This document shows positions 27,682 through 43,880 of a stretch of 64,000 bases of DNA, in pieces. The notes under the pieces were generated by a model that was given only the letters and a program-made list of their open reading frames with translations, was not told the DNA's origin and did no database searches. The DNA is taken from assembly GCA_964418775.1 (NCBI GenBank), contig CAYQNA010000001.1, positions 64,446 through 128,445 of the forward strand. The letters run 5' to 3'. Within the stretch, counting starts at the first letter, position 1, and every line of letters starts with the position of its first letter. The DNA comes from an uncultured Gammaproteobacteria bacterium (GTDB taxonomy: Bacteria > Patescibacteriota > Patescibacteriia > Magasanikbacterales > UBA922). A program made the translations under genes and the position numbers.

Positions 27682-27688
27682 AAAATAA

Positions 27689-28675
27689 CTAGTGTGTAGT
27701 AATTATTAAAGAAACTTTGTCATTAATTGCCGATATTCTTGCCGTGCCCCCTATGGGAAATGTGGCGATCGGCATGGTGTGTCCTAATGTCATATTGGCA
27801 ACAATCGGTACAGACGTAAGTTCCTTTTTTGCTGCAATAATTTTCTTTAAAAAATCGGGTGTAATTTTTGTGATTTTTTTAAAGCGACCTATTACAATAC
27901 CCTTAATACCATTGAAATTGGGTAATTGAATAATTGATTGCAATAAGCGGTCAAAAATCATTGGGTTTATTTCCTCGTCCTCTTCTAAGAGTAATATTGA
28001 ATTTTCAAGTGATGGGAAATATTGTGTTCCTTGTAAGGAAGCAAAACAGCGCATATGTCCACCAATCAATGTTCCGGTTGCTTCGCCAGCTTTAATAATA
28101 TCAAAACCATTTGATTGGATGAATTCCCTTTTTTCTTGATCCAAGTACCAATCATCATCGCTCCAAAATTCGGAAGGGTTGATTTGATATTGGCCATCCT
28201 GCATACAACATTTCTCAAAGTATTCTTTGCTATAATCAAACCCTTTTTTTATGGCCCATGAAGAAAAATGTGGGCCATTACACCCCACCAATCCTGTTTT
28301 TGCATAAATTGCATTAGTTAGAACCGTTATATCTGAATAACCGCAAAGATATTTTGGATTTGATTTAATTAAATCATAATCAAGATAATCTAATAGTTGG
28401 TTTGAGTTATATCCGCCTATAGTCGTGAGTATTCCATCGACAGATGGATCTGAAAATGCATCATGCAAATCTTGCACCCTTGATTCAACTGATGAAGAAA
28501 AGAATTCATTAAATTCATTCACGTTTTTTCCAAAACTTACCCTAAACCCCGCATTTGCAAGTGCCTTTTCGGCTAATTTTACGGTGTCATTTGAAAGTAT
28601 TTTCATACTTCTAGAAGGAGCGATAACTCTAATATGCGAACCCTTTTTTAATTTTTTAGGTAGGATTGTTTCCAT
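27689..28675 (-). CDS. Peptidase S66 family LD-carboxypeptidase (LdcA/MccF-like)
   Basis: Nucleophile motif CGYSDITVL, His in LGHTMP, the acidic catalytic-Glu region LLLEEDEE, and N-terminal IRVIAPS. Start chosen at ATG 28675 (METILPKK...), 7 nt after the upstream stop. The track ORF extends to 28825. Confidence 0.75.
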   Translation of the reverse strand: METILPKKLKKGSHIRVIAPSRSMKILSNDTVKLAEKALANAGFRVSFGKNVNEFNEFFSSSVESRVQDLHDAFSDPSVDGILTTIGGYNSNQLLDYLDYDLIKSNPKYLCGYSDITVLTNAIYAKTGLVGCNGPHFSSWAIKKGFDYSKEYFEKCCMQDGQYQINPSEFWSDDDWYLDQEKREFIQSNGFDIIKAGEATGTLIGGHMRCFASLQGTQYFPSLENSILLLEEDEEINPMIFDRLLQSIIQLPNFNGIKGIVIGRFKKITKITPDFLKKIIAAKKELTSVPIVANMTLGHTMPIATFPIGGTARISAINDKVSLIITTH

Positions 28676-28682
28676 ATATTTA

Positions 28683-29789
28683 TTAAATATTTTCTTTAAT
28701 TGCTGACAAGAGGAATCCTTCTTCAGGAGACAGCGCATCCTGTATAAGAATTTTTTTTTCAATTTCTGGAATATACGAACTAATAAATTCTGACCCCTGA
28801 TGATTAATCCCTCGGCACTCTTCAAATTCTCGCATCATCTTTATTGTTGCTTTGGTTGATATTTTGAATTTATTTTTAAAATAAATCATTGCTCTTAGGT
28901 AAGATCTCAGAATTCGTTCTCTATTTTTATTTGCAGACGGCCGTAATCCTTCTGAGAGTAACATGCTAGATGTAATAATTGTATCCTCAAATTTAAATTT
29001 TAGTGGATCGTTAATCTTTTGAATGCCCAAAACAGGATTTGCAGAATTCACATGGTCAAGTGAAAAAAAATGTTTAAGAATAGTTGACGTGCCTAGAGCG
29101 AGCTCAACACCTAATTGTTTTTCGTTGTTTTCTAAAACAATCAAGTTGCCTATATCATGAAGAACCCCTTCTTTTTTAATGGAATAATTAAAATTTCTAC
29201 CCCACACACCGTTAACACCAACTTTATGTCTGTAGTATTTTTCAGGCATGGTGGTATCATCAAAACTTATACCTAAATTGGTATAAGTTTTTGCAAGCCG
29301 ATACAAATCTTTATCAGTATTATTTACTCGCAAAACTAGATTTTCTTTTGGTATATTTATAACATTTAACAAATAATCTAATGATTGGTCGCATAATTCA
29401 GATATTTTCTCGGGTATAACCAAAACACCCAAACTTTTAAAATAAGAGCCCCATGCTGGCACAATTGAGTCATTAAATATTTTTTGTAAATTTTGAGTTC
29501 TTACGCATTGCTGCGACATGACCAATCCGTTTTTAGGTATTTTGTTTTCCAAAAAATACTTTTTCATTGGGCTAATGTGTGAGCCAACAAATCTTACCGT
29601 TGGATCTATGCCTGAAGTAATGGTAACTGAGGGTATCTCCTTATATCCTTTTTCAGAAAAAAAGTCTATAAACGCCCGTATCATTTTTTCCGTATATTCA
29701 TGCATTTCTTCGGGGGCTGGCTTATATTCGCCAAATCCATAATCGAAAAGTGATTTATTAAAGGCAGGCTTTTTTGTATTTTTAATCAT
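28683..29789 (-). CDS. AlaRS-like class II aaRS catalytic (aminoacylation) domain paralog, truncated (no editing or C-Ala domains)
   Basis: IRAFIDFFSEKGYKEIPS ... DPTVRFVGSHISPMKKYFL ... SQQCVRTQN ... WGSYFKSLG parallels the AlaRS N-terminus (IRQAFLDFFHSKGH.VV.SS ... DPTLLFTNAGMNQFK ... SQRCVRAGG ... HHTFFEMLGNFSFG). About 368 aa from ATG 29789. AT-rich. Confidence 0.7.
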   Translation of the reverse strand: MIKNTKKPAFNKSLFDYGFGEYKPAPEEMHEYTEKMIRAFIDFFSEKGYKEIPSVTITSGIDPTVRFVGSHISPMKKYFLENKIPKNGLVMSQQCVRTQNLQKIFNDSIVPAWGSYFKSLGVLVIPEKISELCDQSLDYLLNVINIPKENLVLRVNNTDKDLYRLAKTYTNLGISFDDTTMPEKYYRHKVGVNGVWGRNFNYSIKKEGVLHDIGNLIVLENNEKQLGVELALGTSTILKHFFSLDHVNSANPVLGIQKINDPLKFKFEDTIITSSMLLSEGLRPSANKNRERILRSYLRAMIYFKNKFKISTKATIKMMREFEECRGINHQGSEFISSYIPEIEKKILIQDALSPEEGFLLSAIKENI

Positions 29790-29870
29790 ATTATAGTAGT
29801 ATGAAGTATAAAATACTACACTAACATTATGCCTATTCAGAATGAAAAATACAATATTAGTATTATTAAC

Positions 29871-30821
29871 ATGGAGACACATCCTAACCTAAAATCTATT
29901 TCGGAATTAGTTCAACTTAAAATAGGTGATATTCTTGATTTTAAAAAGATGTCCGGCGGAAGTAATGAAATTTTTTATATTAAAACCAATCATGGCGAGT
30001 TTATTGTAAAAATATACAATGAAGACAGCTCACAAAGAACTAATTTAAGTCGAGAAATACAAATGTCTAGCATATTGAAAGATTTTCCTGAAATAAGAAG
30101 TCTGGTTTTTTCTGATACAACAAGAAGTCAGATACCGTATGAGTTTGCAATATTTGAATATGTGGACGGCCAAACCTTACGATTTCTCGTTGAAAACAAT
30201 CTTTTAACAGATGAACAATTAGAAGTAATTGCTGATCAGATTTTTGATTTAATTAAAAGAATTATAGAAATTGCAACAAAAAAGTTTGGACAGCTGGATG
30301 AAAGTGGTTTGATAGGGACGTCTCAATCTTGGGTTGATTTTTTGGGTGGCATGCAAGATCCGACTACAAAAACATTTGAAAATAGTAACCTTTTCCCGGA
30401 CAAAGAATATTTAATACCGCAAGCAGTACTGGATAAACACAAAAGTGTATTTGAGCTAGATGATCCAAGATTGATCCCGATGGATTTAAATATAGACAAT
30501 ATAATTGTCACTCCCGATCAAAAAATAAAGTTTATAGACCCAGAAACTTTTTGGAGCGGTGATCCATTATGCGCATTTGCTCAATTTTATGCCCTAACAA
30601 AGGGCACCATATTAGGTGATAAATTTTTTGGGAATTTGGAGCTTTCACCAGATGATGAGTTCAAAGTTCGACTTTATGCACTCCTAGATAATCTGAATGT
30701 TCTTGCCTTTATAACGAGGGTTAATCCAGAAGGTGCTAAAGAAGCAAAGCCATATGGAAACCCAAACAAATTTTTTGATTTGATAAACGAGAATGTAAAA
30801 TTCTTTGAACAAAGTTTATAA
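29871..30821 (+). CDS. APH/choline-kinase-fold small-molecule kinase (aminoglycoside-phosphotransferase-like)
   Basis: Brenner-type catalytic loop PMDLNIDNIIV and metal-binding FIDPE. Protein-kinase-like fold length (about 316 aa from METHPNLK). Divergent from the AlaRS-like gene with an 80-nt AT-rich intergenic region. Confidence 0.6.
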   Translation: METHPNLKSISELVQLKIGDILDFKKMSGGSNEIFYIKTNHGEFIVKIYNEDSSQRTNLSREIQMSSILKDFPEIRSLVFSDTTRSQIPYEFAIFEYVDGQTLRFLVENNLLTDEQLEVIADQIFDLIKRIIEIATKKFGQLDESGLIGTSQSWVDFLGGMQDPTTKTFENSNLFPDKEYLIPQAVLDKHKSVFELDDPRLIPMDLNIDNIIVTPDQKIKFIDPETFWSGDPLCAFAQFYALTKGTILGDKFFGNLELSPDDEFKVRLYALLDNLNVLAFITRVNPEGAKEAKPYGNPNKFFDLINENVKFFEQSL

Positions 30822-30833
30822 AATGCAACGTCC

Positions 30834-32123
30834 ATGGAAAAAGTTTTAATTATTGGCAGCGCCACAAGTCGTGAATATGCTCTTGTTAGAGAGTTGTCAG
30901 TTTATTGTAAATGTAAAGTGAGTGCTTATTTATGGAGGGATAGTCATTTTATTAAAAATCATTGTACCAATTATGAAGTTGGCGATGTTCAGGATATTGA
31001 TAGAATTATTCAGTTTACTAAAAAGGTAAAGCCTGATTTTGTTATTGTTACACAGGGTGAAGCAATGCAAGTTGGAATCAGAAACCACTTAGATTCTATC
31101 AACATACCGTGTATATCGCCGACAAAAGAGCAAAGTAAATTAGAAAATAGTAAGATTTTTTGTCGACAATTTATTAAAGAGATAAACGAACACTTTGTAC
31201 CAAAACACAAAGCGTTCGACGTAAAAAATATTGCTGATTTAGATGGTTATATTAATGAATTAAAATCTGACAAGGTAGTATTAAAATTTGATGGACTCAT
31301 GAACTCTGAAGGGGTGAAGATTTATAACTTGAAAAAAGATTCAAAAAAAGATTTAAAAAATCAAGCAAATACATGGATTAAAAAAGTCAACGGCAAAATA
31401 GTTGTGGAAGAATTTGTTGAAGGAGATGAAGTTTCAATAATGAGTTTTGTCGATGGCACGAATATTGTACACATGCCCCCTGTTAAAAATTATAAGAAAA
31501 TCTGGGAAGGTGATGGTGGCGATAATACTTCTGGAATGGGTTCAATTACGATTGGCAAAACATTGGGTTTTTTAACAAATAAAGACGTCCTCAAATTAGA
31601 AGAAGTTAATAACCTAGTGTTTGAGAAAATAAAAAAGGATTTTTCAGAAAAATATATAGGTATATTGATGGGTGAATTCATAATTAATAATGGGGAAATT
31701 AAGGTTATTGAGTATAATACACGTTTTGGTAATCCTTCAACAATAAATATTTTAAATCTGTTAGATACTAGTTTTTTAGAAATTTGTAAATCAATGATAA
31801 GTGGTACGCTAAATAATACGCCTATTAAATGGAAAAATTTAGCATCAGTTTCTGTGTCGGTTGTACCAAAAGGTTATCCGTACTCAAAAGAAAATGTTGG
31901 AAAAAAAATAAATTTAACCAAACTAGAAAAAGAAGAACTGGGGCATATATTTTTTGCAAGCTTAAATGTGGATTCTAATAAAGATATCACACTTATGAAT
32001 TCAAGAAATTTAACAGTTTGTGTTGTTGGAGAAGAAATAAATAATTGCCGAAGCAGAATAATAAAAATTTTAGATAAAATTGGTGGGCCTATATATTTTA
32101 GAAAAGATATAGGAACTTTTTAA
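30834..32123 (+). CDS. PurD-like ATP-grasp ligase (phosphoribosylamine--glycine ligase homolog)
   Basis: MEKVLIIGSATSREYALVRELS matches MKVLVIGNGGREHALAWK. DGGDNTSGMGS matches DKDTGPNTGGMG. IKVIEYNTRFGNPST matches PKVIEFNCRFGDPET. The C-terminal GGPIYFRKDIG matches CFCRKDIG of PurD. Confidence 0.7.
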   Translation: MEKVLIIGSATSREYALVRELSVYCKCKVSAYLWRDSHFIKNHCTNYEVGDVQDIDRIIQFTKKVKPDFVIVTQGEAMQVGIRNHLDSINIPCISPTKEQSKLENSKIFCRQFIKEINEHFVPKHKAFDVKNIADLDGYINELKSDKVVLKFDGLMNSEGVKIYNLKKDSKKDLKNQANTWIKKVNGKIVVEEFVEGDEVSIMSFVDGTNIVHMPPVKNYKKIWEGDGGDNTSGMGSITIGKTLGFLTNKDVLKLEEVNNLVFEKIKKDFSEKYIGILMGEFIINNGEIKVIEYNTRFGNPSTINILNLLDTSFLEICKSMISGTLNNTPIKWKNLASVSVSVVPKGYPYSKENVGKKINLTKLEKEELGHIFFASLNVDSNKDITLMNSRNLTVCVVGEEINNCRSRIIKILDKIGGPIYFRKDIGTF

Positions 32124-32149
32124 GGCCTTTGATTATTTAGACATAATTT

Positions 32150-32722
32150 ATGTTAAAAGTTGGGTTTGACATGGATGGAGTTATTATTGACAACACAGTG
32201 TTTAAAAGTGATTTGTACCGTCAGAAAACTGGTATAAAGCTTGAATGTTGGAAGTTTAATTCAAATGTTATTGATGATTACATAACTAATACCCCTCTTC
32301 GTAAAGAAATAGACAAAATTAGCGCCATATCTGTACATCATAAAACAACTGAACAGAACATGCGCAACATTTTATTAGAAATAAAGTCCCACGCAGACAT
32401 TTTTTTGATTTCCTCAAGAGGAAAAAGTGAAGAGGGCGTGTTGGCAGCGCGACAAACCATTAAAAATCTAAAATTAGATACTATCTTTGGAGATAATATT
32501 TTTTTTACAAAAAACGATGGAGATAAAATTGAAAAAATTAAATTTCTTGAAATTGATTTTTTTATAGAGGACAGATTCGATGTTATTAGTATGCTACCTA
32601 AAAAAACAGCCATACTATATGATCAATTTTTTCAATGGAAAAAATATAAAAAATATATTATTATTAAATCACTCTTGGACATTATTCCGTTAATTAGATT
32701 TCAGGAGTACAGTGATAACTAA
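32150..32722 (+). CDS. HAD-superfamily phosphatase, 5'(3')-deoxyribonucleotidase (NT5C)-like
   Basis: Motif I FDMDGVIID (DxDGV) at the N-terminus and length about 190 aa are typical of NT5C-like HAD nucleotidases. Confidence 0.6.
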   Translation: MLKVGFDMDGVIIDNTVFKSDLYRQKTGIKLECWKFNSNVIDDYITNTPLRKEIDKISAISVHHKTTEQNMRNILLEIKSHADIFLISSRGKSEEGVLAARQTIKNLKLDTIFGDNIFFTKNDGDKIEKIKFLEIDFFIEDRFDVISMLPKKTAILYDQFFQWKKYKKYIIIKSLLDIIPLIRFQEYSDN

Positions 32723-32724
32723 GA

Positions 32725-34014
32725 TTGGGTGATGAATGTTACTATATGATCGGTACAGGAATTATCTTAAAACCAAATGGCGATGAAATTTTTATTAAGG
32801 ATGATGAGACTTTGGAATCTCTTATAAAAACAAAAATTACGAAAGAAATGGGAGCTTACTTGCGGAGAGCAGAGTTAGGAGGAAAAGTGAATGAAAGTAT
32901 GGTTGTGCAAAAAGCTATAGATTTGGGTTATTTATCTCACACCCTAAATACAAATGACGGTAGTGCAACATTTACCTCTAAGGGGAAAATAATAAAAGAA
33001 TTGATAACACAGTGGAGTAAATCAATCGCCAAAAATAAATTACAAGCTTTAGAAGTAGAAACTCCGGATATATATAAAGCTAATAAAGTTATATTATCAA
33101 TGCAAGATCAATTCGGCGAACCCCCTTTTTATATTAATGAAGAGGAAATATTAAGACCTGCATCTGATTTTGGGGTTTTTTCTTTGTATGGAGGGAAAAT
33201 ATTACAAGAATCAATTATTCCGCACAGAATTTTTGAGCTGGCAAATTGTTTTAGGCAGGAAGACGTGAATAGGGTTGATTTATTAGCAAGACCTAGGAAA
33301 TTTTCCATGCCTGATCTACACACATTTATTCAATTGAAAGATCTAGATAATGAACTAAAAATTCAGGAAGATGTTTATCTAGATGCAATGAGATCCATTG
33401 AACTTGAGTTTCTTGTTTCTGTTAGGACAACAACAGAAGAATACACTCAATTAAAAAAACATTTTTTTTATTTAGCTCAACAAACTAATAAAGAAGTTTA
33501 TATTAATATAGTACCAAGCAGGAAACGTTATTGGACAACTAAAATTAAATTCATCTACGTAGATAGTCTTGGCAATAATTTACAATTAACTACTATACAA
33601 ACTGACCACGATTCTGCCAAACTTTTTAATATCAAATTAAAAGATACTTATCCGAGTGTGCTTCATTCGTCGCTTGGCAGTATAGAGCGGCTGATGTATG
33701 CCCTTATTGACGAAGGATTAAAGGGAAAACATTTTATGTTACCACTATGGATAAGCCCCGTTCAAGCTATGATTTTTGGGGATAAAAAAAATTTAATGAT
33801 TGGGAGATTAGTGAGATATGAAAAATGTAGTGAAACTAGTATAAAATCAAATATGTTTGAAAGCTTTTTTAAAATTGGTATTCCTTATGTAATTGATGTT
33901 GATAATAACATTGCTTATAGCAGAGATGACCAGGAACAGGCTGACATGGTAATCAATAAAATTGAAATTATTAATAAAAATTTTTTGAATCTACCTAAAT
34001 CAAATAAATTTTAA
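32725..34014 (+). CDS. ThrRS-like class IIa aaRS paralog (catalytic + anticodon-binding domains only; no N1/N2 editing domains)
   Basis: Motif 2 RIFELANCFRQEDVNRVDLLARPRKFSMPDLHTF parallels the ThrRS sequence [33 protein letters not shown]. Motif 3 GSIERLMYALIDE followed by HFMLPLWISPVQAMIFG parallels GSMERFIGILTEE ... FPTWLAPVQVVIM, the catalytic/anticodon-domain junction. The motif 1 region GKIIKELITQWSKSIAKNKLQALEVETPDIY also matches. Confidence 0.7.
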   Translation: MGDECYYMIGTGIILKPNGDEIFIKDDETLESLIKTKITKEMGAYLRRAELGGKVNESMVVQKAIDLGYLSHTLNTNDGSATFTSKGKIIKELITQWSKSIAKNKLQALEVETPDIYKANKVILSMQDQFGEPPFYINEEEILRPASDFGVFSLYGGKILQESIIPHRIFELANCFRQEDVNRVDLLARPRKFSMPDLHTFIQLKDLDNELKIQEDVYLDAMRSIELEFLVSVRTTTEEYTQLKKHFFYLAQQTNKEVYINIVPSRKRYWTTKIKFIYVDSLGNNLQLTTIQTDHDSAKLFNIKLKDTYPSVLHSSLGSIERLMYALIDEGLKGKHFMLPLWISPVQAMIFGDKKNLMIGRLVRYEKCSETSIKSNMFESFFKIGIPYVIDVDNNIAYSRDDQEQADMVINKIEIINKNFLNLPKSNKF

Positions 34015-34015
34015 T

Positions 34016-34582
34016 ATGGCGAAAATCATACTGACTGGGCCACATTATTGTGGAAAAACCACTGTACTTAGAAAATTGAAGGATTACTTTTTAGATAACC
34101 CTGAAGTGGGTTTTATTGAAAGCGATGGAAGTCGCTGTCCAATTAGTTACAAAGATGTGGATTATTTGCGAGCAAATCCCAAAACAGAAATAAACATAAC
34201 ATATTGGATGATTGCAGATAACATAAAAAGAGAGATTGAGGCAAAAAATAAATATAAAAATTTAGTATTTGATCGCTGCGTCATAGATCAGCTTGCATAC
34301 CCCGCAGAAATTACCGGTAAAGATAATTTACCAAAATCCATAAATTTATTTATACGAGAATGGCTTATATTTGAACCATACGATAAGATATTTATATTTC
34401 CCGCAAACCCTGATTTTTTGAAAGCAGGTACAAATAATACTGGAGATGTAAATTTTCAGAAAAATATTGAACAAAGATATTTAGAATTAACCAAAGAATT
34501 TAATCTTTCGTCTGAAATACTCCCCTTAGATCAAGATAGACAAATTGATTTAATTTTAAATTATTTGAAGTCTAATTTATAA
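34016..34582 (+). CDS. P-loop NTPase, nucleoside/nucleotide-kinase-like (AAA_33/dNK-like)
   Basis: Walker A GPHYCGKTT at residues 8-16. 188 aa, a size typical of small-molecule kinases. Starts 1 nt after the ThrRS-like gene stop. Confidence 0.55.
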   Translation: MAKIILTGPHYCGKTTVLRKLKDYFLDNPEVGFIESDGSRCPISYKDVDYLRANPKTEINITYWMIADNIKREIEAKNKYKNLVFDRCVIDQLAYPAEITGKDNLPKSINLFIREWLIFEPYDKIFIFPANPDFLKAGTNNTGDVNFQKNIEQRYLELTKEFNLSSEILPLDQDRQIDLILNYLKSNL

Positions 34583-34931: not shown

Positions 34932-35708
34932 CTACTCCTCCGGAATGCAGCCCTCGATGGGCTCGTTGTACCGGCACTCGTTGCCCGACCCTGCAAAGTG
35001 CAGACAAACATTCTGCAGACAGGGATCATCGGTGACCCCGCAGTCCGTATCCGTCTGGCAAGTGTCGATGCACTTCACCTCGGGCTCGGACGTGCACAGA
35101 TTGTTGCAGAACTGACCGACGCCCATGCTGGGCTGGCAGGTCGAGTCTTCCTCACAGGAGTAGAGCAGCATACCAACACTGCTCCCGTTGCAGACCTTGT
35201 CAGCTTTGCAATCCGCGTGCGTCTTGCATGGCTTGCATCCCTCCACTGTTGCGTGGGCGCAGAAACCCCCATCGCAAGTTTCAGTCGTGCAGCCCTGGCC
35301 GTCGTCGCAGTCCTCGTCGGACTGGCACTGGACCTCGCTGGCCCAGATCTCTGGTGTGTCGGTCGGCTGCGACGCTTCTTCCTCGGCCTTCTGGCTCTGG
35401 AAGTACATGATGAGGTCTTCGAGCATCTCGTCGGAGAGGGTGAACGTGCCCTGTTCCACCGAGAACATGGTGGGTGCTCCGACCTGACCTTCCTCACCCG
35501 TGAGGTCGGTACCGTCAAAACCAACGGCCGGTTCCGGCCAATCGACGCCCGGCTCACCCATGGGACCGTCGACCCCGTGGGTACCGTCGCCGTTGTTGGT
35601 CTCGTCCACGCTGTTCGCGGTGGTACACACCGGGTCCGGGCTCACGCAGTCGCGCGAGCAGGAAGAGACGAGGGCAACGAAGACGGACAGCGTGTTGAAC
35701 TTATTCAT
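34932..35708 (-). CDS. Cysteine-rich secreted lipoprotein (repeated CxxDxDC-type modules), GC-rich and probably foreign
   Basis: Signal peptide with lipobox (LVSSC). About 28 Cys in repeated motifs (CQSDEDCDDGQGC, CKTHADCKADKVC, CQTDTDCGVTDDPC). Composition is strongly GC-rich. Long ORFs on the opposite strand look like GC-driven artefacts. Confidence 0.55.
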   Translation of the reverse strand: MNKFNTLSVFVALVSSCSRDCVSPDPVCTTANSVDETNNGDGTHGVDGPMGEPGVDWPEPAVGFDGTDLTGEEGQVGAPTMFSVEQGTFTLSDEMLEDLIMYFQSQKAEEEASQPTDTPEIWASEVQCQSDEDCDDGQGCTTETCDGGFCAHATVEGCKPCKTHADCKADKVCNGSSVGMLLYSCEEDSTCQPSMGVGQFCNNLCTSEPEVKCIDTCQTDTDCGVTDDPCLQNVCLHFAGSGNECRYNEPIEGCIPEE

Positions 35709-35967
35709 GACTGACTCCGATGCGGCCGTGTAGCGGTCCGCGTTTATGCCCCACAGGGCTAGATTGGAATGGTCCGGACTGGCTGACGAGTGTCATCCTG
35801 CCCAGAGCTTTGGGAGGGTCAAGCACTACCCTGGCAAAGCTGTAGGAAGGAAAAGCCGTAAAATTTTAACCGCGGAGTATACCTTTTTTTCAACCCCTTA
35901 GGACGTCAAAAGACCGGTTAAAACCGGTCTTTCTTGGCTAGATTAAGCCTTTTTGTTGGCTGCCTCC

Positions 35968-36234
35968 TTACTCCTCGCCCAGTCCCAGCTTTTCCTCTAT
36001 TAAGGTAAGGCTGCTGGCCATGGCATCGGCATCGGCCCGGGTGCGGTCGTCCAGTTTGTGGAGCTGTAGGCGGAGGTCGGTCAGGCCGCGGTCGAGGTTG
36101 GTGCCCAAGTGGCCAATTTGCTGGCGGCATTGCTGGGCCGTGACCTCTAGGTTTCCCAGGGTATCCAGGATGTCTCCTAGGAGGCGGGGGAGGTCACTAA
36201 GGTTAACGTCAGGTACATAGGTTGTGGTTGCCAT
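35968..36234 (-). CDS. Small hypothetical protein (coiled-coil-like)
   Basis: ATG at 36234 (MATTTYVPDVNLSDLPRLLGDILD...), 88 aa. Lies in the same GC-rich segment. No motif. Confidence 0.35.
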   Translation of the reverse strand: MATTTYVPDVNLSDLPRLLGDILDTLGNLEVTAQQCRQQIGHLGTNLDRGLTDLRLQLHKLDDRTRADADAMASSLTLIEEKLGLGEE

Positions 36235-36330
36235 AAAGAAAGTAGGCTGCTGTGGCGCTCCCACACGCAGCGTAGATAGTATCAAACAGCTGGGTTTGAC
36301 TGTCAAATTAGCCTAAAATACGTAGGGGAC

Positions 36331-36367
36331 TGTGGATAACCACAGACTTATCCACTATTTATCCACA
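36331..36367. promoter_or_regulatory. Cluster of three DnaA boxes
   Basis: TGTGGATAA (36331-36339, reverse complement of TTATCCACA), TTATCCACT (36348-36356, 8/9) and TTATCCACA (36359-36367). Followed by a roughly 60-nt AT-rich stretch. Confidence 0.6.
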
Positions 36368-36463
36368 TTCTCTTTTAAAAATCCCTTATTTAAGCTAAAA
36401 TAATAAACAACATTGACAAAAACTAGCGATTCGTTCTGTCCTTGACAATCCACGCTGCTTCGA

Positions 36464-36498
36464 GTATGATTATGGAGCTAATTTAGCTCGTGGTTCTG
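36464..36498 (+). promoter_or_regulatory. Sigma-70-like promoter upstream of rpoB
   Basis: TTGACA (36464-36469), 17-nt spacer, TATGAT. Perfect -35 and near-consensus -10, about 120 nt upstream of the rpoB ATG. Confidence 0.55.
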
Positions 36499-36615
36499 GC
36501 TCGGCCAAGAGCCGGGAGATTGGTAATATCATGTCCGCCCTACCAACCCCATAAGCATCCCACTATAATAATCCTTTGCCCAAGGAATTTTTTTGTTTAT
36601 TACGTTGACCAGACT

Positions 36616-39600
36616 ATGCCTCCAGTCTATAAGCGCCAACCTGGTACACAGCCAGAACGCAAGTTTTTTACTCCAATTCGCGACGCCGTGGAAACCCCGG
36701 ATCTGATTGAAGTCCAAAAAATGTCGTACGATTGGTTTGTAAAAGACGGTATCCGCGAATTGTTTGACGAAGTTTCGCCAATCACTGACTTTACGGGTCG
36801 TGATTTGGAGTTGTCGTTCGAAGAATACTACCTCGACGAGGCCAAGTTTGACGAAGCGCACTGCCGCTCCAAGAACATTACCTACGAAGCACCACTCCGC
36901 GTGCAGGTAAAATTGGTTAACAAGCGTACTGGTAAGTCCAATAAACAGGAAATTTATTTGGGCGACGTACCGCTCATGACCAACCGTGGTACATTCATGA
37001 TCAACGGCATTGAGCGCGTGGTCGTGTCCCAGCTTATTCGCAGTCCTGGTGCTTTCTTTACGGCTGACGCAGTTCGCGGTCGCCGTTTTTACGGAGCTAA
37101 AATTATTCCAAACCGCGGTGCTTGGATTGAAGTTGAAACTGACCAGAACAATGTTATCTGGGTAAAAGTTGACCGCAAGCGCAAAGTGGCCGCAACATCA
37201 CTCATGCGTGCCTTTGGCATGTCCAACGACGATGATATTCGTGCCGCGTTCAAAAACGTAAACAACCATCCAAACATTGATTACATTGAAGAAACTTTGA
37301 AAAAGGACGCCTCTTCGAGTGAAGAAGAAGGTTTGATCGAAGTCTACCGCCGCATTCGTCCGGGCGATCTCGCCACCGCAGACAATGCCAAGAGTTTGAT
37401 TCACGCCATGTTCTTTAACTTTGACCGCTACGATTTGGGCAAAGTTGGTGTGTACAAATTCGCCACTAAATTTAATTTGCAATATACCGACGAGCAATTG
37501 GAAAGCAAAGAAACTCGCGTGCTTTCGCTCGAAAAACTGATTCAGGTTTTGTCCGAAGTAATTCGCCTAAACGTGACTCAGGAAATTCCTGATGATATTG
37601 ACCACCTTGGTAACCGCCGCGTGCGCGCCGTAGGTGAACTCGTGCAGAACCGTTTCCGCATTGGTTTGGCTCGCATGGAGCGCATTATCAAGGACCGCAT
37701 GAGTACCATGGACATTGATAGCATTGTGCCAAACAAGCTCATCAACGCCCGCCCAGTAATTAGTGTCATCCGCGAATTCTTTATGAGTTCGCAGTTGTCG
37801 CAATTCATGGACCAGGTTAACCCGCTCGCTGAATTGGAGAACAAGCGCCGCGTGTCGGCTCTTGGACCTGGTGGTTTGTCCCGCGACCGTGCTGGCTTTG
37901 AAGTTCGCGACGTACACAGTACGCACTATGGTCGCATTTGTCCGATTGCCACTCCAGAAGGTCCGAACATTGGTTTGGTTGGCCACTTGTCCATGTTCGC
38001 ACGCATGAACAATTTTGGTTTCCTGGAAACTCCATACCGCCGTGTTATCAAGACCGTTGCCAACACCGCTGAATTTACGACTGGTGAAATTGCCAACGAA
38101 GATGTGGCCGGTGTGGTAAAAACAGGTGAGCACATTACCGCGGACATTGCCAAAAAATTGGCTGCCAAAAAAGATATTACCCAAATTGCAGTTAAGCCAC
38201 GTGTAGGCAGTGAAATTGTGTACCTGAACTCGTTTGAAGAAGAACGCGCGGTGACAACCAACGCCAAAGTGGCAACCGATGAAAAGGGCTATTTTGTACC
38301 AGGCAAGATTCCGGCTCGCGTGCACGGTCAACCAGCGATTGCCGATGTGCAAACCGTTGATTATGTTGATGTAAGTTCGCACCAGATTTTGTCTGTGGCC
38401 ACAAGTTTGATTCCATTCCTCGAACACGACGACGCTACCCGCGCCCTCATGGGTACGAACATGCAGCGCCAAAGTGTGCCATGTATTAAAGCCGACCCAC
38501 CACTCGTTGGTACGGGCGTAGAACGCGCCGCCGCCATGTCGAGTGGATATGTGTACACAGCTGACGACGACGGTGAAATCACCGCTGTTGATGGCAACCA
38601 CATTGAATTGACCAGCAAAAAAGGCAAGGTGTACACGTACCGTTTGCAGAAGTTCATTCGTTCGAATGCTTCCAGTTGTATCAACCAAACACCAACCGTG
38701 AAATTGGGCCAGAAAGTTAAGAAAGGCGACCCAATGTCCGACGGTCCATCGATCAAGAACGCAGAATTAGCGCTTGGTCAGAACGTCCTCGTGGCCTATA
38801 TGGTGTGGGATGGTTTCAACTACGAAGACGCCATTATTTTGTCTGAACGTTTGGTGCAAAAAGACCGCTACACTTCGATCCAGATTGAACATTACACCAC
38901 TGATGTTCGCGAAACTAAGCTTGGGCCAGAAGTGGTTACGAGCGACATTCCAAATGTAAGTGAAGAAAAACTCAAGAATTTGGATTCCGAAGGTATTGTG
39001 CGCATTGGTGCCGAAGTACACTCGGGCGACATTTTGGTAGGTAAGATTACACCAAAAGGTGAAACCGAATTGACTCCAGAAGAGCGCTTACTCCGCGCCA
39101 TCTTTGGTGAAAAAGCTCGCGACGTGCGTGATTCTTCGTTGTACTTGGAACACGGTGAACAGGGTAAGGTAATTGATGTGAAGATTTTCTCGGCCGATGC
39201 CGGCGACAAGTTGCAACCTGGTGTTATCAAACAAGTGCAGGTAACTGTAGCCGACATGCGCAAAGTGCAGGTTGGTGACAAGATGGCCGGTCGCCACGGT
39301 AACAAGGGCGTTATTTCCCGCGTGGTCCCAGTGGCTGACATGCCATTCCTCGAAGACGGTACACCAGTCGACATTATTTTGTCGCCACTCGGTGTTATTT
39401 CTCGTATGAACTTGGGTCAGTTGCTCGAAAACCACTTGGGCTTGGCTGCCAATGCTTTGGGTTACCGCGCCGCCACTCCGGTTTTGAACGGTATTACCGA
39501 AGAACAGATTACTGAAGAGCTCAAAAAAGCCGGCTTGCCAATAGATGGTCAGTCCCAGTTGTACGACGGTCGTACCGGTGAACCATACGACAACAAGACT

Positions 39601-40032
39601 ACGGTGGGTTACAACTATATGCTCAAACTTAACCACATGGTTGAGGACAAGATCCACCAACGCTCGATTGGTCCTTACAGTTTGATTACGCAGCAGCCAC
39701 TTGGTGGTAAGGCGCAATTTGGTGGTCAGCGCTTTGGTGAAATGGAAGTGTGGGCCTTGGAAGCATACGGCGCCGCACACACCCTCCAGGAAATGCTCAC
39801 AATTAAGTCGGACGATGTGCCTGGTCGCGCCAAAGCTTACGAAGCGATTATTAAGGGCGAACCAATTACCAAGATTAACCTACCTGAATCATTCAACGTG
39901 CTCGTGCGCGAACTTAAAGGTCTGGCGCTCGATGTTGAATTGCAGGATAACCGCAGCGAGGCCGAGATTGCCGCGTCAATGCCACCAGCAGAGACATCGG
40001 CTCCTGATGCGTCCGCTGACGCAGCTGAATAA
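36616..40032 (+). CDS. rpoB: DNA-directed RNA polymerase subunit beta
   Basis: Canonical RpoB sequence throughout (e.g. GDKMAGRHGNKGVIS, NMQRQ, rifampicin cluster region). Start chosen at ATG 36616 (MPPVYKRQPG...). The track ORF from 36490 is an upstream over-extension. Confidence 0.97.
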   Translation: MPPVYKRQPGTQPERKFFTPIRDAVETPDLIEVQKMSYDWFVKDGIRELFDEVSPITDFTGRDLELSFEEYYLDEAKFDEAHCRSKNITYEAPLRVQVKLVNKRTGKSNKQEIYLGDVPLMTNRGTFMINGIERVVVSQLIRSPGAFFTADAVRGRRFYGAKIIPNRGAWIEVETDQNNVIWVKVDRKRKVAATSLMRAFGMSNDDDIRAAFKNVNNHPNIDYIEETLKKDASSSEEEGLIEVYRRIRPGDLATADNAKSLIHAMFFNFDRYDLGKVGVYKFATKFNLQYTDEQLESKETRVLSLEKLIQVLSEVIRLNVTQEIPDDIDHLGNRRVRAVGELVQNRFRIGLARMERIIKDRMSTMDIDSIVPNKLINARPVISVIREFFMSSQLSQFMDQVNPLAELENKRRVSALGPGGLSRDRAGFEVRDVHSTHYGRICPIATPEGPNIGLVGHLSMFARMNNFGFLETPYRRVIKTVANTAEFTTGEIANEDVAGVVKTGEHITADIAKKLAAKKDITQIAVKPRVGSEIVYLNSFEEERAVTTNAKVATDEKGYFVPGKIPARVHGQPAIADVQTVDYVDVSSHQILSVATSLIPFLEHDDATRALMGTNMQRQSVPCIKADPPLVGTGVERAAAMSSGYVYTADDDGEITAVDGNHIELTSKKGKVYTYRLQKFIRSNASSCINQTPTVKLGQKVKKGDPMSDGPSIKNAELALGQNVLVAYMVWDGFNYEDAIILSERLVQKDRYTSIQIEHYTTDVRETKLGPEVVTSDIPNVSEEKLKNLDSEGIVRIGAEVHSGDILVGKITPKGETELTPEERLLRAIFGEKARDVRDSSLYLEHGEQGKVIDVKIFSADAGDKLQPGVIKQVQVTVADMRKVQVGDKMAGRHGNKGVISRVVPVADMPFLEDGTPVDIILSPLGVISRMNLGQLLENHLGLAANALGYRAATPVLNGITEEQITEELKKAGLPIDGQSQLYDGRTGEPYDNKTTVGYNYMLKLNHMVEDKIHQRSIGPYSLITQQPLGGKAQFGGQRFGEMEVWALEAYGAAHTLQEMLTIKSDDVPGRAKAYEAIIKGEPITKINLPESFNVLVRELKGLALDVELQDNRSEAEIAASMPPAETSAPDASADAAE

Positions 40033-40055: not shown

Positions 40056-43000
40056 ATGAATAACCCCAACCTCTCCAGCGCTTTGCAGTTCGACGCGCTC
40101 CGCCTCAAAGTCGCCTCGCCAGAAGTGATCAAGCAGTGGTCATATGGTGAAGTGTACAAGCCAGAAACCATTAACTACCGTACCCAGAAGCCAGAAAAAG
40201 GTGGTTTGTTTGCCGAAGAAGTATTTGGTCCAACCAAAGACTGGGAATGTTATTGTGGTAAGTACAAAAAGATCCGCTACAAGGGTATTGTCTGTGACAA
40301 GTGTGGTGTAGAAGTTACCCACTCACTGGTGCGCCGCGAACGCATGGGCCACATTGAATTGTCCACACCGGTGTCGCACATTTGGTTCTTGCGCACAATC
40401 CCATCTCGTTTGGGTTTGGTGCTCGACTTGTCGATTCAGGCACTTGAAAAGGTTATTTACTTTGCCTCGTTCATCATTACGCATGTCGATGATGTTGAAA
40501 AAGATGCGACAGCCGAAGCTTTGAAAAAAGAATACAAGAACAAGCGTAAACAGCTTGAAGCTTTGCCAGCTGACCCAGGTCGCGATGCAAAGATTGAGGC
40601 ACTTGATGAAGATTACAACCAGGCCGAAGGCGAACTCAAAGAAATCGCCATGCTCAACATTGTGTCCGAAGCGCGCTACCAAGAATTGTCTGTGCGCTAT
40701 GGTCACTTATTCGAAGCGGGGATTGGTGCCGGTTCAGTGCGCCAACTTTTGGAACGCTTGAATTTAGAAGAAACAATTAAAAATTTGGAAGCCGAAATTG
40801 AAAAGAGTAAGGGTGCAAAGCGTGGTCGCCTCGTGCGCCGCGTTAAACTGCTCACTAGTTTGAGCAAAAACAACATCCGCCCAGAATGGATGATCATGAC
40901 CGCAATTCCAGTGGTTCCACCAGATTTGCGTCCAATGGTTGCACTTGATGGTGGTCGTTTTGCCACTTCGGATTTGAACGATTTGTACCGCCGCGTGATT
41001 AACCGCAACAATCGTTTGCGTCGCCTCATTGAACTCAATGCGCCAGAAGTTATTTGCCGCAATGAAAAACGCATGCTCCAAGAAGCAGTTGATGCGCTCA
41101 TTGATAACAATGCTCGCGCTACCAAAACTGTGCGTGCTTCGACTGGTCAAAAGCGCCAACTCCGCTCACTTGCCGACATTCTCAAGGGTAAACAGGGCCG
41201 CTTCCGCCAGAACTTACTTGGTAAGCGCGTTGACTACTCTGGTCGTTCGGTGATCGTGGTTGGTCCAAAGCTCAGTATCGACCAATGTGGTTTGCCAAAG
41301 ATCATGGCCCTCGAGCTGTTCAAGCCATTTGTGATGGCCGAAATTATTAAGCGTGGCCTCGCTCACAATGTGCGCAGTGCCTCCCGCTTTATCGAGAGCA
41401 ATGCCCCAGAAGTGTGGGATATTTTGGAAAATCTTACCAAAACCACTCGTGTACTCTTGAATCGCGCTCCAACCTTGCACCGTCTTGGTATCCAGGCTTT
41501 CCGCCCAACACTAGTCGAAGGTAAAGCGGTTCGCTTGCACCCACTCGTGTGTGCGGCGTTTAACGCTGACTTTGACGGTGACCAAATGGCTGTCCACCTT
41601 CCATTGTCCGAACAAGCCAAGTGGGAAGCCGAAAACCTCATGGCCTCGGAAAAGAACTTGCTTAAGCCAGCTACTGGTACGCCAGTAATTACGCCGCAGC
41701 AAGACATTGCGCTTGGTTGCTATTATTTGACTAAGTACGATGATACAGATAAGGCTGAGGTGAAAAAATACTTTGCCAATGTAACTGAAGCAAAGTTTGC
41801 GTACAAAACACGCCACATCAAGCTCAAGGAACGCATCAAGGTCCGTTTGGGTGCGGCTGACATGGCCAAGTTCCCAGCTGGCACAAACCCAATTGTTGAG
41901 ACCTGTATTGGTCGTATTTTCTTCAATGAAATTTTCCCAGACCTCATTCCGTTCTACAACGAAACCATTACCAAGAAGCACTTGTCGGCCATTATTCAGT
42001 CGCTCCTTGAACATTATGGTCAGGAACGCACGGCCAAGTCGCTCGATGATATCAAGAACTTGGGTTACCGCTATGTGACCAAGTCTGGTTACTCACTTGG
42101 TAAAAACCAATTCCCAGAAATTCCACAAAAGGCCGAACTCTTGGCCGAAGGTGACAAGCGCATTGAAGAAGTGGAAGAACAGTATGCCGAAGGTTTGCTC
42201 ACTGACGCCGAACGTCACGCCAAAGTGCTCGAAATTTGGACCGAAATTAAAGACCGCTTGTTAACGTTTACCAAAGATGTACTTAACAAGAACGACGCCG
42301 TATTTGCGATGATTGACTCTGGTGCTCGTGGTTCGTGGGCCCAGCTTGGTCAGGTGATTGCGATGAAAGGTCTCGTGGCTTCGCCAAGTGGTGAAATTAT
42401 CGAACTCCCTGTTAAAGGCAACTTTAAGGAAGGGTTCGAAGTGCTCGAGTTCTTTATTTCGTCCCACGGTACTCGTAAAGGTTTGTCCGATACTGCGCTC
42501 CGTACTGCTAACGCTGGTTACTTGACCCGTCGTTTGGTAGACGTGGCTCAGGACGTGATTGTGAAGATTGAAGATTGTGGTGACACGGACGGTGAGCACT
42601 TCAACAAAGCCGAATCCGAACAAATGGGTGAAAAATTATCCGAACGCGTCGCTGGTCGCTTTGTGCTCGCCCCAATTGTGGTTGATGGTAAAACAATTGT
42701 TGAAAAAGGTGATGCAGTAACTGCCGAAGCTGCTCGTCAGATTGAAAAACTCGGCGTGACCGAAGCTCATGTGCGTTCTGTGCTCCAATGTAAGATGGCC
42801 AAGGGTGTATGTATCAAGTGCTACGGCTACGACCTCGCCAACAATATGCCGGTTAAACCAGGTGTGGCTGCCGGTGTAATTGCTGCGCAGTCCATTGGTG
42901 AGCCTGGTACGCAGCTGACCATGCGTACGTTCCACCTTGGTGGTGTGGCTGGTGGCGATATTACCCAAGGTTTGCCTCGTGTTGAAGAATTGTTCGAAGC

Positions 43001-43880
43001 TCGCTTGCCAAAACGCAAAGCCATTTTGGCCGAAACCGCTGGTAAGATCGAGATCGAAGACGCAGACGGCAAAGTAATCACGAGCCCAACAGGCCGCAAG
43101 ATTTTCGAAGGCCGCCGTGGTCAAAAGATTATCAAGATCCACAGTGAAGGCGAGTCCGAAATGACATTCGAAATCAATGCCGAAGACGAAGTGAAAGTTG
43201 CGGATGGCGACAAGATCAAGAAAGACGATGTGCTCTTGGTCCGCGGTTCGTCGGGCGAAGAAATTTTGGCCAAGTACAATGGTTCGGCCGAAATCAAGCG
43301 CGGCAAACTCATCCTTACCTACGAAGGTGACTCAACTAAGGAATACATTATTCCAATGGGTTACAAATTGTGGGTCAAGACTGGTGACGAAGTACAAAAA
43401 GGTGCTCAACTTACCGAAGGTAGTATTGACCTGAACGAGTTGCACGAACTCCAGGGCCGCGACGCTGTGCAGCGTTACGTGCTCACCGAAATTCAGGAAA
43501 TTTACGCCGCTCAGGGTCAACGCTTGAACGACAAGCACGTAGAAATCATGATCAAGCAGATGTTCAGCCGCGTGTATATCGAAGAAGCCGGTGACACTGA
43601 CCTCTTGCCAGGTGAAGTGGCCGAAAAGTCACAGCTCATCATTGCTAACCGCGAGGCCGAAGCTGCTGGCAAACGTCCAGCCAAGGGTCGCGAACTCTTG
43701 CTTGGTATTAGTAAGGTTGCGCTCTCGACCCAAAGCTTCTTGTCGGCTGCATCGTTCCAAGAAACTTCGCGCGTGCTCGTCAACGCGGCCATTACTGGTA
43801 AAGTTGACCACCTCGAAGGCCTCAAGGAAAACGTTATTATCGGCCGCCTCATTCCAGCCGGTACCGGATTCCGCGAGTAA
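40056..43880 (+). CDS. rpoC: DNA-directed RNA polymerase subunit beta'
   Basis: Zinc finger CYCGKYKK ... CDKCG and catalytic NADFDGDQM. Full-length beta' at 1274 aa. Confidence 0.98.
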   Translation: MNNPNLSSALQFDALRLKVASPEVIKQWSYGEVYKPETINYRTQKPEKGGLFAEEVFGPTKDWECYCGKYKKIRYKGIVCDKCGVEVTHSLVRRERMGHIELSTPVSHIWFLRTIPSRLGLVLDLSIQALEKVIYFASFIITHVDDVEKDATAEALKKEYKNKRKQLEALPADPGRDAKIEALDEDYNQAEGELKEIAMLNIVSEARYQELSVRYGHLFEAGIGAGSVRQLLERLNLEETIKNLEAEIEKSKGAKRGRLVRRVKLLTSLSKNNIRPEWMIMTAIPVVPPDLRPMVALDGGRFATSDLNDLYRRVINRNNRLRRLIELNAPEVICRNEKRMLQEAVDALIDNNARATKTVRASTGQKRQLRSLADILKGKQGRFRQNLLGKRVDYSGRSVIVVGPKLSIDQCGLPKIMALELFKPFVMAEIIKRGLAHNVRSASRFIESNAPEVWDILENLTKTTRVLLNRAPTLHRLGIQAFRPTLVEGKAVRLHPLVCAAFNADFDGDQMAVHLPLSEQAKWEAENLMASEKNLLKPATGTPVITPQQDIALGCYYLTKYDDTDKAEVKKYFANVTEAKFAYKTRHIKLKERIKVRLGAADMAKFPAGTNPIVETCIGRIFFNEIFPDLIPFYNETITKKHLSAIIQSLLEHYGQERTAKSLDDIKNLGYRYVTKSGYSLGKNQFPEIPQKAELLAEGDKRIEEVEEQYAEGLLTDAERHAKVLEIWTEIKDRLLTFTKDVLNKNDAVFAMIDSGARGSWAQLGQVIAMKGLVASPSGEIIELPVKGNFKEGFEVLEFFISSHGTRKGLSDTALRTANAGYLTRRLVDVAQDVIVKIEDCGDTDGEHFNKAESEQMGEKLSERVAGRFVLAPIVVDGKTIVEKGDAVTAEAARQIEKLGVTEAHVRSVLQCKMAKGVCIKCYGYDLANNMPVKPGVAAGVIAAQSIGEPGTQLTMRTFHLGGVAGGDITQGLPRVEELFEARLPKRKAILAETAGKIEIEDADGKVITSPTGRKIFEGRRGQKIIKIHSEGESEMTFEINAEDEVKVADGDKIKKDDVLLVRGSSGEEILAKYNGSAEIKRGKLILTYEGDSTKEYIIPMGYKLWVKTGDEVQKGAQLTEGSIDLNELHELQGRDAVQRYVLTEIQEIYAAQGQRLNDKHVEIMIKQMFSRVYIEEAGDTDLLPGEVAEKSQLIIANREAEAAGKRPAKGRELLLGISKVALSTQSFLSAASFQETSRVLVNAAITGKVDHLEGLKENVIIGRLIPAGTGFRE

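Follow-up and report, generated by a model that had tools for sequence, protein, structure and literature searches.

Boxes and promoters upstream of rpoBC

The window, by which we mean the whole 64-kb stretch of DNA analysed, carries rpoB followed by rpoC, and the 380-bp intergenic region that precedes them holds a cluster of DnaA boxes between two divergent consensus promoters (Table 1). A previous sequence-only reading of this DNA had reported two opposed perfect boxes and one 8/9 box within 37 bp, and our pattern search recovered all three at exactly the positions claimed, together spanning 37 bp. On the rpoB-sense strand box 1 reads TGTGGATAA and lies 111 bp upstream of the -35 hexamer of P2, the promoter preceding rpoBC. 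With the weak box that overlaps it, it forms the palindrome GTGGATAACCAC, which was flagged as a hairpin-like repeat. Boxes 2 and 3 are separated by 2 bp and make up a near-perfect double box. Boxes 1 and 3 were the only perfect boxes that the pattern search found in the 64-kb window. Matches with up to one mismatch numbered 32 in the window, against 15.4 ± 4.7 expected, and groups of at least three boxes within 40 bp appeared in 0 of 3000 block-shuffled windows.

Table 1. Positions of the features at and around the DnaA-box cluster, numbered from the first base of the window.
Feature	Position	Strand	Remarks
Small 88-aa ORF	35968-36234	-	divergent from rpoB; homologue only in L001 (86% aa identity)
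Divergent promoter-like site, TTGACA-17-GATACT	36278-36306	-	points to the small ORF; promoter prediction
DnaA box 1, perfect TTATCCACA (9/9)	36331-36339	-	pattern search; conserved 'distal' box
Weak box ATAACCACA, 2 mismatches	36336-36344	+	overlaps box 1
DnaA box 2, TTATCCACT (8/9)	36348-36356	+	upstream half of 'double DnaA box'
DnaA box 3, perfect TTATCCACA (9/9)	36359-36367	+	downstream half of double box
AT-rich tract (supposed 'DUE')	36371-36412	+	UP-element-like position for upstream TTGACA
Upstream TTGACA element	36413-36418	+	exactly 29 bp before P2 -35
Promoter P2, TTGACA-17-TATGAT (11/12 match)	36442-36470	+	leader-rpoBC transcript; promoter prediction, conserved in relatives
rpoB leader RNA	36476-36615	+	between P2 start and rpoB ATG
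Leader hairpin CUGGCUC...GAGCCGG	within 36476-36615	+	
7-codon uORF, MSALPTP	36531-36554	+	
Terminator-like hairpin + U-tract	36572-36598	+	ends 17 nt before rpoB ATG
rpoB	36616-40032	+	ATG at 36616; proposed to be controlled by the module
rpoC	40056-43880	+	proposed to be controlled by the module

The placement of the boxes upstream of an rpoBC promoter, also read from the sequence beforehand, agrees with our prediction of P2 between the cluster and the rpoB start codon. Relative to the inferred P2 transcription start (about 36476-36478), the boxes occupy -147 to -111. Downstream of the upstream TTGACA lies a conserved GTTCT (36433-36437). We rejected this TTGACA as part of a canonical promoter P1: the hexamer found 17 nt further downstream (TCTnaT) has no A at position 2. 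On the other side of the cluster, box 1 is 25 bp upstream of the -35 of the divergent promoter-like site. The 88-aa ORF to which that site points gave no Pfam match and, because it is confined to the window and its closest relative (L001), it is unlikely to be a conserved target of regulation.

The AT-rich DNA adjoining the boxes had been proposed as an unwinding element. The tract is there (36371-36417 as then quoted, with 79% A+T counted from the sequence), but that role did not stand up, as this is conserved promoter DNA, with the upstream TTGACA and, at 36390-36399, a degenerate copy (TTAAGCTAAA) of a TTAGCYAAAA motif conserved in related genomes. To judge by these elements, the supposed DUE is the upstream part of the rpoBC promoter region.

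The site also adjoins apparently acquired DNA, as had been noted. In an alignment with L001, the segments at 25.7-34.7 kb and 34.8-35.9 kb are insertions missing from that relative, and most of the DNA from 25.7 to 35.9 kb has a GC content of 30-34%, against about 48%. The 25.7-34.7 kb insertion (30-34% GC) has aaRS-like, ATP-grasp, kinase and LD-carboxypeptidase genes.

Conservation of the rpoB upstream region in Magasanikbacteria

RpoB relatives assign the window to a Candidatus Magasanikbacteria MAG. For comparison we used 80 rpoB loci (±10 kb) from MAGs of related Candidatus Magasanikbacteria (CPR/Patescibacteria), found via RpoB relatives; these loci are mutually related, so that counts over them overstate independence, and de-replication to 31 sequence clusters corrects this only partly. 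In most of the 80, the rpoB-sense strand carries a perfect TGTGGATAA at 210-630 nt before rpoB, usually the sole perfect box in about 20 kb. About a quarter of the relatives have no perfect box at all. The genes upstream of rpoB vary (ftsK-recA, rpsF-ssb-rpsR, islands or others), and the box module stays with rpoB. In many relatives ftsK-(HTH)-recA precedes rpoB on the opposite strand and is the ancestral upstream neighbour; in the window the ftsK-recA genes are found at 21.4-25.6 kb. The expected rplJL was not found among the upstream neighbours of rpoB.

The promoter region is conserved along with the box. An architecture of the form TTGACA-N23-TTGACA-N17-(G)TATnnT was present in 55 of 81 sequences, while the exact double-TTGACA pattern was absent from the other 26. 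A-tracts of the TTAGCYAAAA type precede the double TTGACA, and the conserved GTTCT lies inside the architecture. In about 1 Mb of loci the double-TTGACA architecture occurred 52 times, always at rpoB. Among the 55 sequences that have it (window and loci), 47 also carry the distal box in the same orientation. Counting perfect boxes, we found 50 within 7.7 kb, that is, in the 140 bp upstream of the P2 -35, against 11 in the remaining 943 kb, which amounts to an enrichment of about 550-fold. The densest box clusters in all the loci are those upstream of rpoB.

The spacing between boxes and promoter is discrete. Between the distal box and the P2 -35 there are 80, 91, 98-103, 111-116 or 123 bp; distances of 104-110 bp do not occur. 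The values advance in steps of about 11 bp (Rayleigh R = 0.73 for a period of 11 bp in 31 independent sequence clusters). A second, proximal box, TTATCCAC, sits on the + strand, opposite to the distal one, at -17/-18 between both TTGACA elements; allowing up to two mismatches, it is found in 19 of 55 loci, against a background of 0.6%. Box-like sites on the + strand share a single 11-bp register at -94 and -83 (boxes 2 and 3 of the window), -50 (TTAGCCAAA, with two mismatches) and -17. Box 3, 83 bp upstream of the P2 -35 and also present in L001, is thus on the lattice of the canonical proximal box. The window and L001 have no proximal box and carry boxes 2 and 3 as extra boxes instead, and the three-box arrangement is limited to these two sequences. 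The presence of boxes 2 and 3 in place of the proximal box suggests a rearrangement of the module that is specific to their lineage.

A DnaA with its DNA-binding residues is assumed for this lineage from general knowledge of CPR genomes. Conservation stops at the edges of the 9-mer. In variants with a single mismatch, this falls preferentially at box position 5 (24%, compared with 8% at other positions), while positions 2 and 8 are avoided, and the commonest variant is TTATACACA. The classical E. coli consensus, TTATNCACA, leaves position 5 free, and the tolerance seen here fits it. Besides, 15 of the 47 distal boxes have an upstream partner with up to two mismatches at 2-3 bp (0.3% by chance) and 7 of 47 have a downstream one, so that about half (22 of 47) are partnered. 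ChIP-seq in E. coli has described a 'double DnaA box', a pair spaced by 2-3 bp that is required for DnaA binding in vivo (PMC11317965), and both boxes 2 and 3 of the window and the partnered boxes of the relatives fit this rule in their sequence. Taken as sequence traits, the edge-bound conservation, the tolerance at position 5 and the partners at 2-3 bp point to DnaA over an unrelated factor.

One could argue that some other protein reads the 9-mer, or that it simply belongs to the structure of an unusual promoter, and that its match to the DnaA box is a coincidence. DnaA is tied to the site by sequence, and the other conserved and unexplained elements (the upstream TTGACA, GTTCT and TTAGCYAAAA) suggest further factors; the TTAGCYAAAA motif may have another binder or may simply be an UP element. 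Yet a 9/9 consensus match recurs in about 50 divergent genomes, and the traits given above, with TTATACACA as the main variant, are specific to DnaA (PMC11317965). Hence, we regard a reader other than DnaA as unlikely.

Downstream of P2, the distance to rpoB varies from 140 to 480 nt across the window and its relatives. Rfam gave no match for the window or for six related loci at gathering thresholds, nor for positions 35700-36700 under permissive settings, and the leader alone folds no better than its shuffles (z = -0.47). In 51 of 55 leaders, we found a hairpin with TTTTTTGT(T) after it, at 13-290 nt from the downstream rpoB ATG, and the stem sequences differ between clades. The distance from the U-tract to the ATG is just 13-26 nt in the window and several relatives, so rpoB must be expressed by read-through. 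An ATG lying 54-69 nt before the U-tract opens an ORF of 5-13 codons in 46 of those 51 leaders, as compared with 1-4 of about 50 control windows and a mean of 4.1 (maximum 11) in shuffles. Between the stop codon of this uORF and the 5' arm of the hairpin there is a median of 12 nt, and about 12 nt past a stop codon is roughly where the leading edge of a terminating ribosome stands. The uORF peptides are unrelated between clades and have no runs of regulatory codons; the only 5' helix seen, UCUGG/CCGGA, belongs to one clade. From its sequence, the leader is a candidate translation-coupled attenuator, and with its uORF and terminator it would be a second candidate regulatory element, independent of the boxes.

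Strand skew and gene content at the site

The sequence-only reading had offered the chromosomal origin as one possible identity of the cluster, which would make the site an oriC moved away from dnaA, with the AT-rich tract as its unwinding element. In agreement with this, the box cluster adjoins AT-rich DNA, the site is conserved across the lineage, and in many relatives the flanking genes diverge, with ftsK-recA on the - strand and rpoBC on the + strand. Moreover, box 3 points to the AT-rich DNA, just as box R1 of E. coli oriC is oriented toward the unwinding element.

Because whole-sequence GC skew is confounded by gene strand and was ambiguous, we measured the skew at third codon positions (GC3) on the rpoB-sense strand, split by side of the site and by gene strand. 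In the relatives, GC3 skew upstream of the site was 0.167 for + genes and 0.166 for - genes, and downstream of it 0.168 and 0.207, respectively. Locus by locus, it was positive in 41 of 43 upstream and in 38 of 43 downstream. The window showed the same behaviour, with positive values on both sides. No sign switch of GC3 skew occurred at the box site in the window or in the relatives, which is one of the signs that the earlier reading had itself named as speaking against an origin. The skew follows the physical strand and not transcription. Since it is the same on both sides, one replication fork passes through the site, and rpoBC is co-oriented with this fork. Genomes of the CPR show normal skew patterns (PMC4736985).

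The content of the site also argues against an oriC. We did not find dnaA in the 64-kb window or in the 80 loci of ±10 kb, using its signature motif and phmmer, and Pfam annotation of the window gave no dnaA, dnaN or other origin-linked gene; linkage of an origin to dnaA/dnaN is usual, though not obligatory. The boxes form a real cluster, but one that is sparse for an origin: the window has three with up to one mismatch and four with up to two, and the relatives have 1-4. The basal unwinding rule known as BUS calls for a box, a spacer of 0-16 bp, at least three DnaA-trios (NAN) and AT-rich DNA (PMC8287927). At the site there is no canonical run of three or more trios within that distance of a box. 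ATTCTCTTT, the sole NAN/NTN run in the vicinity of a box, shares one base with box 3 and holds no consensus trio, and the next one begins 28 bp away. Finally, the AT-rich tract is promoter DNA with a conserved sequence. According to these results, with no skew switch, no dnaA nearby and no canonical trio module, we rejected the chromosomal oriC, which we consider very improbable.

The other origin that had been suggested is that of an integrated element, in which case the site would be the origin, or a remnant, of the acquired island at 25.7-35.9 kb. The site does adjoin this low-GC foreign DNA, and the island contains five one-mismatch boxes, all on a single strand, at 33746-34164. This reading fails because relatives that have no island, L001 included, carry the boxes and the promoter module at the same place next to rpoB. 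Neither a replication initiator nor an integrase was detected in the island by Pfam annotation, and we give the idea practically no credence. More generally, in raw sequence a cluster of DnaA boxes beside AT-rich DNA can pass for an origin, and the third-codon skew of both flanks tells the two apart, even in a short window.

Putative DnaA control of rpoBC and its counterparts in known systems

Considering the comparative data as a whole, we think it probable that the rpoBC promoter of Candidatus Magasanikbacteria has a conserved control region bound by DnaA, of which the three boxes are the version found in this genome. DnaA would bind the high-affinity distal site, represented here by one inverted box and a near-perfect double box at -147 to -111, and would then cooperate with weaker sites spaced on an 11-bp lattice across the A-tract/TTAGCYAAAA region. 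This lattice would extend, in many relatives, to the proximal box, between the upstream TTGACA and the P2 -35. Its occupancy would alter the access of RNA polymerase to the UP-like region, the upstream TTGACA and the -35, and the synthesis of the RNA polymerase core subunits would in this way be coupled to the status of replication initiation. Transcripts from P2 would then pass through the leader, whose short uORF and intrinsic terminator would add a second layer of control before rpoB.

We infer DnaA binding, the direction of regulation and any oligomerisation or looping from the sequence. Regarding direction, repression at high DnaA(-ATP) seems somewhat more likely than activation, because promoters known to be under DnaA control are more often repressed, as are dnaA P1/P2 (PMC5835720). 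No proximal box occurs in the window itself, where more than 110 bp separate the boxes from the transcription start downstream, a long distance for simple occlusion.

As an alternative, the site could titrate DnaA or modulate its nucleotide state, in the manner of datA, of DARS or of the B. subtilis clusters, and act on DnaA instead of on rpoBC, with a strong promoter lying beside it. No DnaA site in the 64 kb is stronger, and conservation across the lineage would be expected equally under this explanation. It is also, like DARS1, DARS2 and datA, non-coding and away from oriC. In the DARS core, boxes I and II are opposed with a gap of 5 bp, and boxes II and III have the same direction (PMC6868365). 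The window resembles it, with box 1 inverted with respect to the tandem boxes 2 and 3. However, the gap between the first two boxes is 8 bp and not 5 bp, and the three-box form is missing from all relatives except L001, for which reasons we rejected membership of the DARS core. Most relatives carry only 1-3 boxes, and a site that acts on DnaA alone would have no need of a promoter distance stepped by 11 bp or of a box between promoter elements. Thus, from the earlier suggestion of a DnaA-titration or regulatory site, the regulatory part is backed by strong comparative evidence, while pure titration is less likely because the position of the boxes is locked to the promoter; we hold a site that acts on DnaA itself to be improbable.

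DnaA doubles as a transcription factor with a small regulon that comprises dnaA, nrd genes, polA, purH, rpoH and few others. We know of no earlier description of DnaA controlling the genes for the RNA polymerase core, and in the literature that we searched no paper connects DnaA boxes with the rpoB promoter or with Magasanikbacteria. Promoters with DnaA boxes are known; what appears new with respect to that literature is the rpoBC target, the lineage-wide conservation and the promoter-locked lattice. If the proposed DnaA control of rpoBC is correct, the module would tie transcriptional capacity directly to replication initiation in uncultured, regulator-poor CPR, and would be a clean natural example of the spacing rules of DnaA sites outside an origin.

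A stronger version of this proposal, which we put forward only tentatively, is that DnaA assembles an origin-like oligomer in 11-bp register on the rpoBC control region, with opposed high-affinity boxes flanking weak TTAGCYAAA-type sites. The replication initiator might then directly govern the production of the RNA polymerase core, acting in series with a leader-peptide attenuator that senses ribosomes, in Magasanikbacteria and possibly in other CPR with few transcription factors. If so, a compact hub would couple replication, transcription and translation at a single promoter.

Each of these elements has counterparts in known systems. In leader-peptide attenuators such as that of pyrBI, a short uORF is followed by an intrinsic terminator before the regulated genes. 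The rpoB leader is similar in having a uORF at a fixed distance before an intrinsic terminator, and differs in that its peptide has no conserved sequence or run of regulatory codons. In E. coli, too, transcription is attenuated immediately before rpoB, between rplL and rpoB; in contrast, rpoBC has its own promoter here, with no read-through from rplKAJL.

The arrays of E. coli oriC consist of 9-bp boxes with 2-bp gaps, that is, in an 11-bp register. As in the oligomerisation region of oriC and in BUS, opposed high-affinity boxes of the module flank weaker sites in 11-bp register, with AT-rich DNA adjoining. The module differs from them in its few boxes, in the promoter that lies in between, and in having no skew switch, DnaA-trio run or nearby dnaA.

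Regarding the double boxes of E. coli, which regulate nrdA, polA, purH, nrdD, rpoH and mioC (Stringer et al. 2024, PMC11317965), the likeness is in the same-orientation pairs 2-3 bp apart, one of them near-consensus, upstream of a gene. Unlike them, the module has an extra inverted box and a promoter-locked lattice, and rpoB and rpoC are outside the DnaA regulon listed for E. coli (PMC11317965).

Finally, E. coli dnaA has a DnaA box between its two promoters, both of which DnaA represses (PMC5835720). With respect to dnaAp1/dnaAp2, the module has rpoBC and not dnaA as its putative target; it adds a distal high-affinity box, 80-123 bp upstream in 11-bp steps; its upstream TTGACA has no canonical -10, and there is no GATC/SeqA component. 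The window has, in addition, lost the proximal box. In the relatives that keep it, the arrangement is alike: a proximal box between two TTGACA elements 29 bp apart, before an essential gene.

Motifs in the promoter region upstream of rpoB

Upstream of rpoB, the window and the related loci that carry a double TTGACA (55 sequences in all) present the two elements at the same position, with a spacing of exactly 29 bp. A gap of 17 nt separates the upstream TTGACA from TCTnaT. Since this hexamer does not have the canonical A at -11, the upstream element is not an ordinary promoter. Among the loci searched, this double-TTGACA architecture was restricted to rpoB. A second motif, TTAGCYAAAA, is conserved 5' of the first TTGACA, at about -51 from the -35 hexamer of the rpoBC promoter P2 in L002-L080, and is often present as a tandem 10-bp repeat; the copy in the window is degenerate. 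Only two positions separate TTAGCYAAAA from a DnaA box (TTAGCCAAA), and an 11-bp register is common to the motif and the DnaA boxes. It is just as possible that TTAGCYAAAA serves as an UP element or as the site of another factor.

Features in the window and in related Magasanikbacteria rpoB loci (L001-L080)
Feature	Sequence	Position	Strand	Remark
Low-GC island	window	26581-34582		30-34% GC vs about 48%
One-mismatch DnaA boxes (five)	window	33746-34164	-	within 420 bp
Cysteine-rich ORF, 258 aa	window	34932-35708	-	
TTAGCYAAAA, degenerate copy	window	36390-36399		
TTGACA pair	window	36413-36447		position common to 55 sequences
rpoB leader	window	36476-36615		
Leader uORF	window	36531-36554		
Leader hairpin and U-tract	window	36572-36598		
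rpsF-ssb-rpsR-like neighbours	L015; also L025, L029	8167-9471 (L015)		upstream of rpoB
Downstream perfect DnaA boxes	L037, L049, L054, L057	12427, 19514, 19307, 19182		
Downstream perfect DnaA boxes	L051, L046, L077, L047	16669, 17718, 20966, 18154		

A candidate attenuator in the rpoB leader

Among the relatives' leaders, 46 out of 51 contain a uORF of 5-13 codons starting 54-69 nt before a terminator made up of a hairpin and TTTTTTGT, with a median gap of 12 nt between the stop codon and the hairpin. This layout is conserved at rpoB, yet the peptide sequence of the uORF is not. A search of Rfam gave no family match for the leader. We regard the rpoB leader as a candidate translation-coupled attenuator of the RNA polymerase genes.

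Apparently acquired DNA and genes upstream of rpoB

The low-GC island is missing from the closest relative (L001). It contains three aaRS-like paralogues (a class II D/K/N-type, an AlaRS N-terminal-type and a G/H/P/S/T-type core), together with genes for a GARS-like ATP-grasp ligase, an APH-family kinase, an LD-carboxypeptidase and an AAA_28 NTPase, and one unknown ORF. In appearance the island is a biosynthetic cluster for aminoacyl ligases that was acquired. The 258-aa cysteine-rich ORF has a signal/lipoprotein-like N-terminus, no match in Pfam and markedly G+C-rich surroundings (53% GC over 35001-37000). It is also missing from L001 and so represents a second insertion, with a composition unlike that of the adjoining island. 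In some relatives, rpsF-ssb-rpsR-like genes, recognized by eye from N-terminal sequences, take the place of ftsK-recA upstream of the rpoB module. In no locus examined did rplJ-rplL adjoin rpoB.

Further DnaA boxes

The five boxes of the island fall in coding sequence and all lie on the same strand; none of 3000 block shuffles gave five on one strand. They may be a chance product of codon usage or a functional cluster belonging to the island. In several relatives, single perfect DnaA boxes occur past rpoC, 8-11 kb 3' of the start of rpoB, in apparently intergenic positions; the one in L057 forms an inverted pair with TTTTCCACA. These downstream boxes hint at more DnaA-regulated promoters in the lineage.
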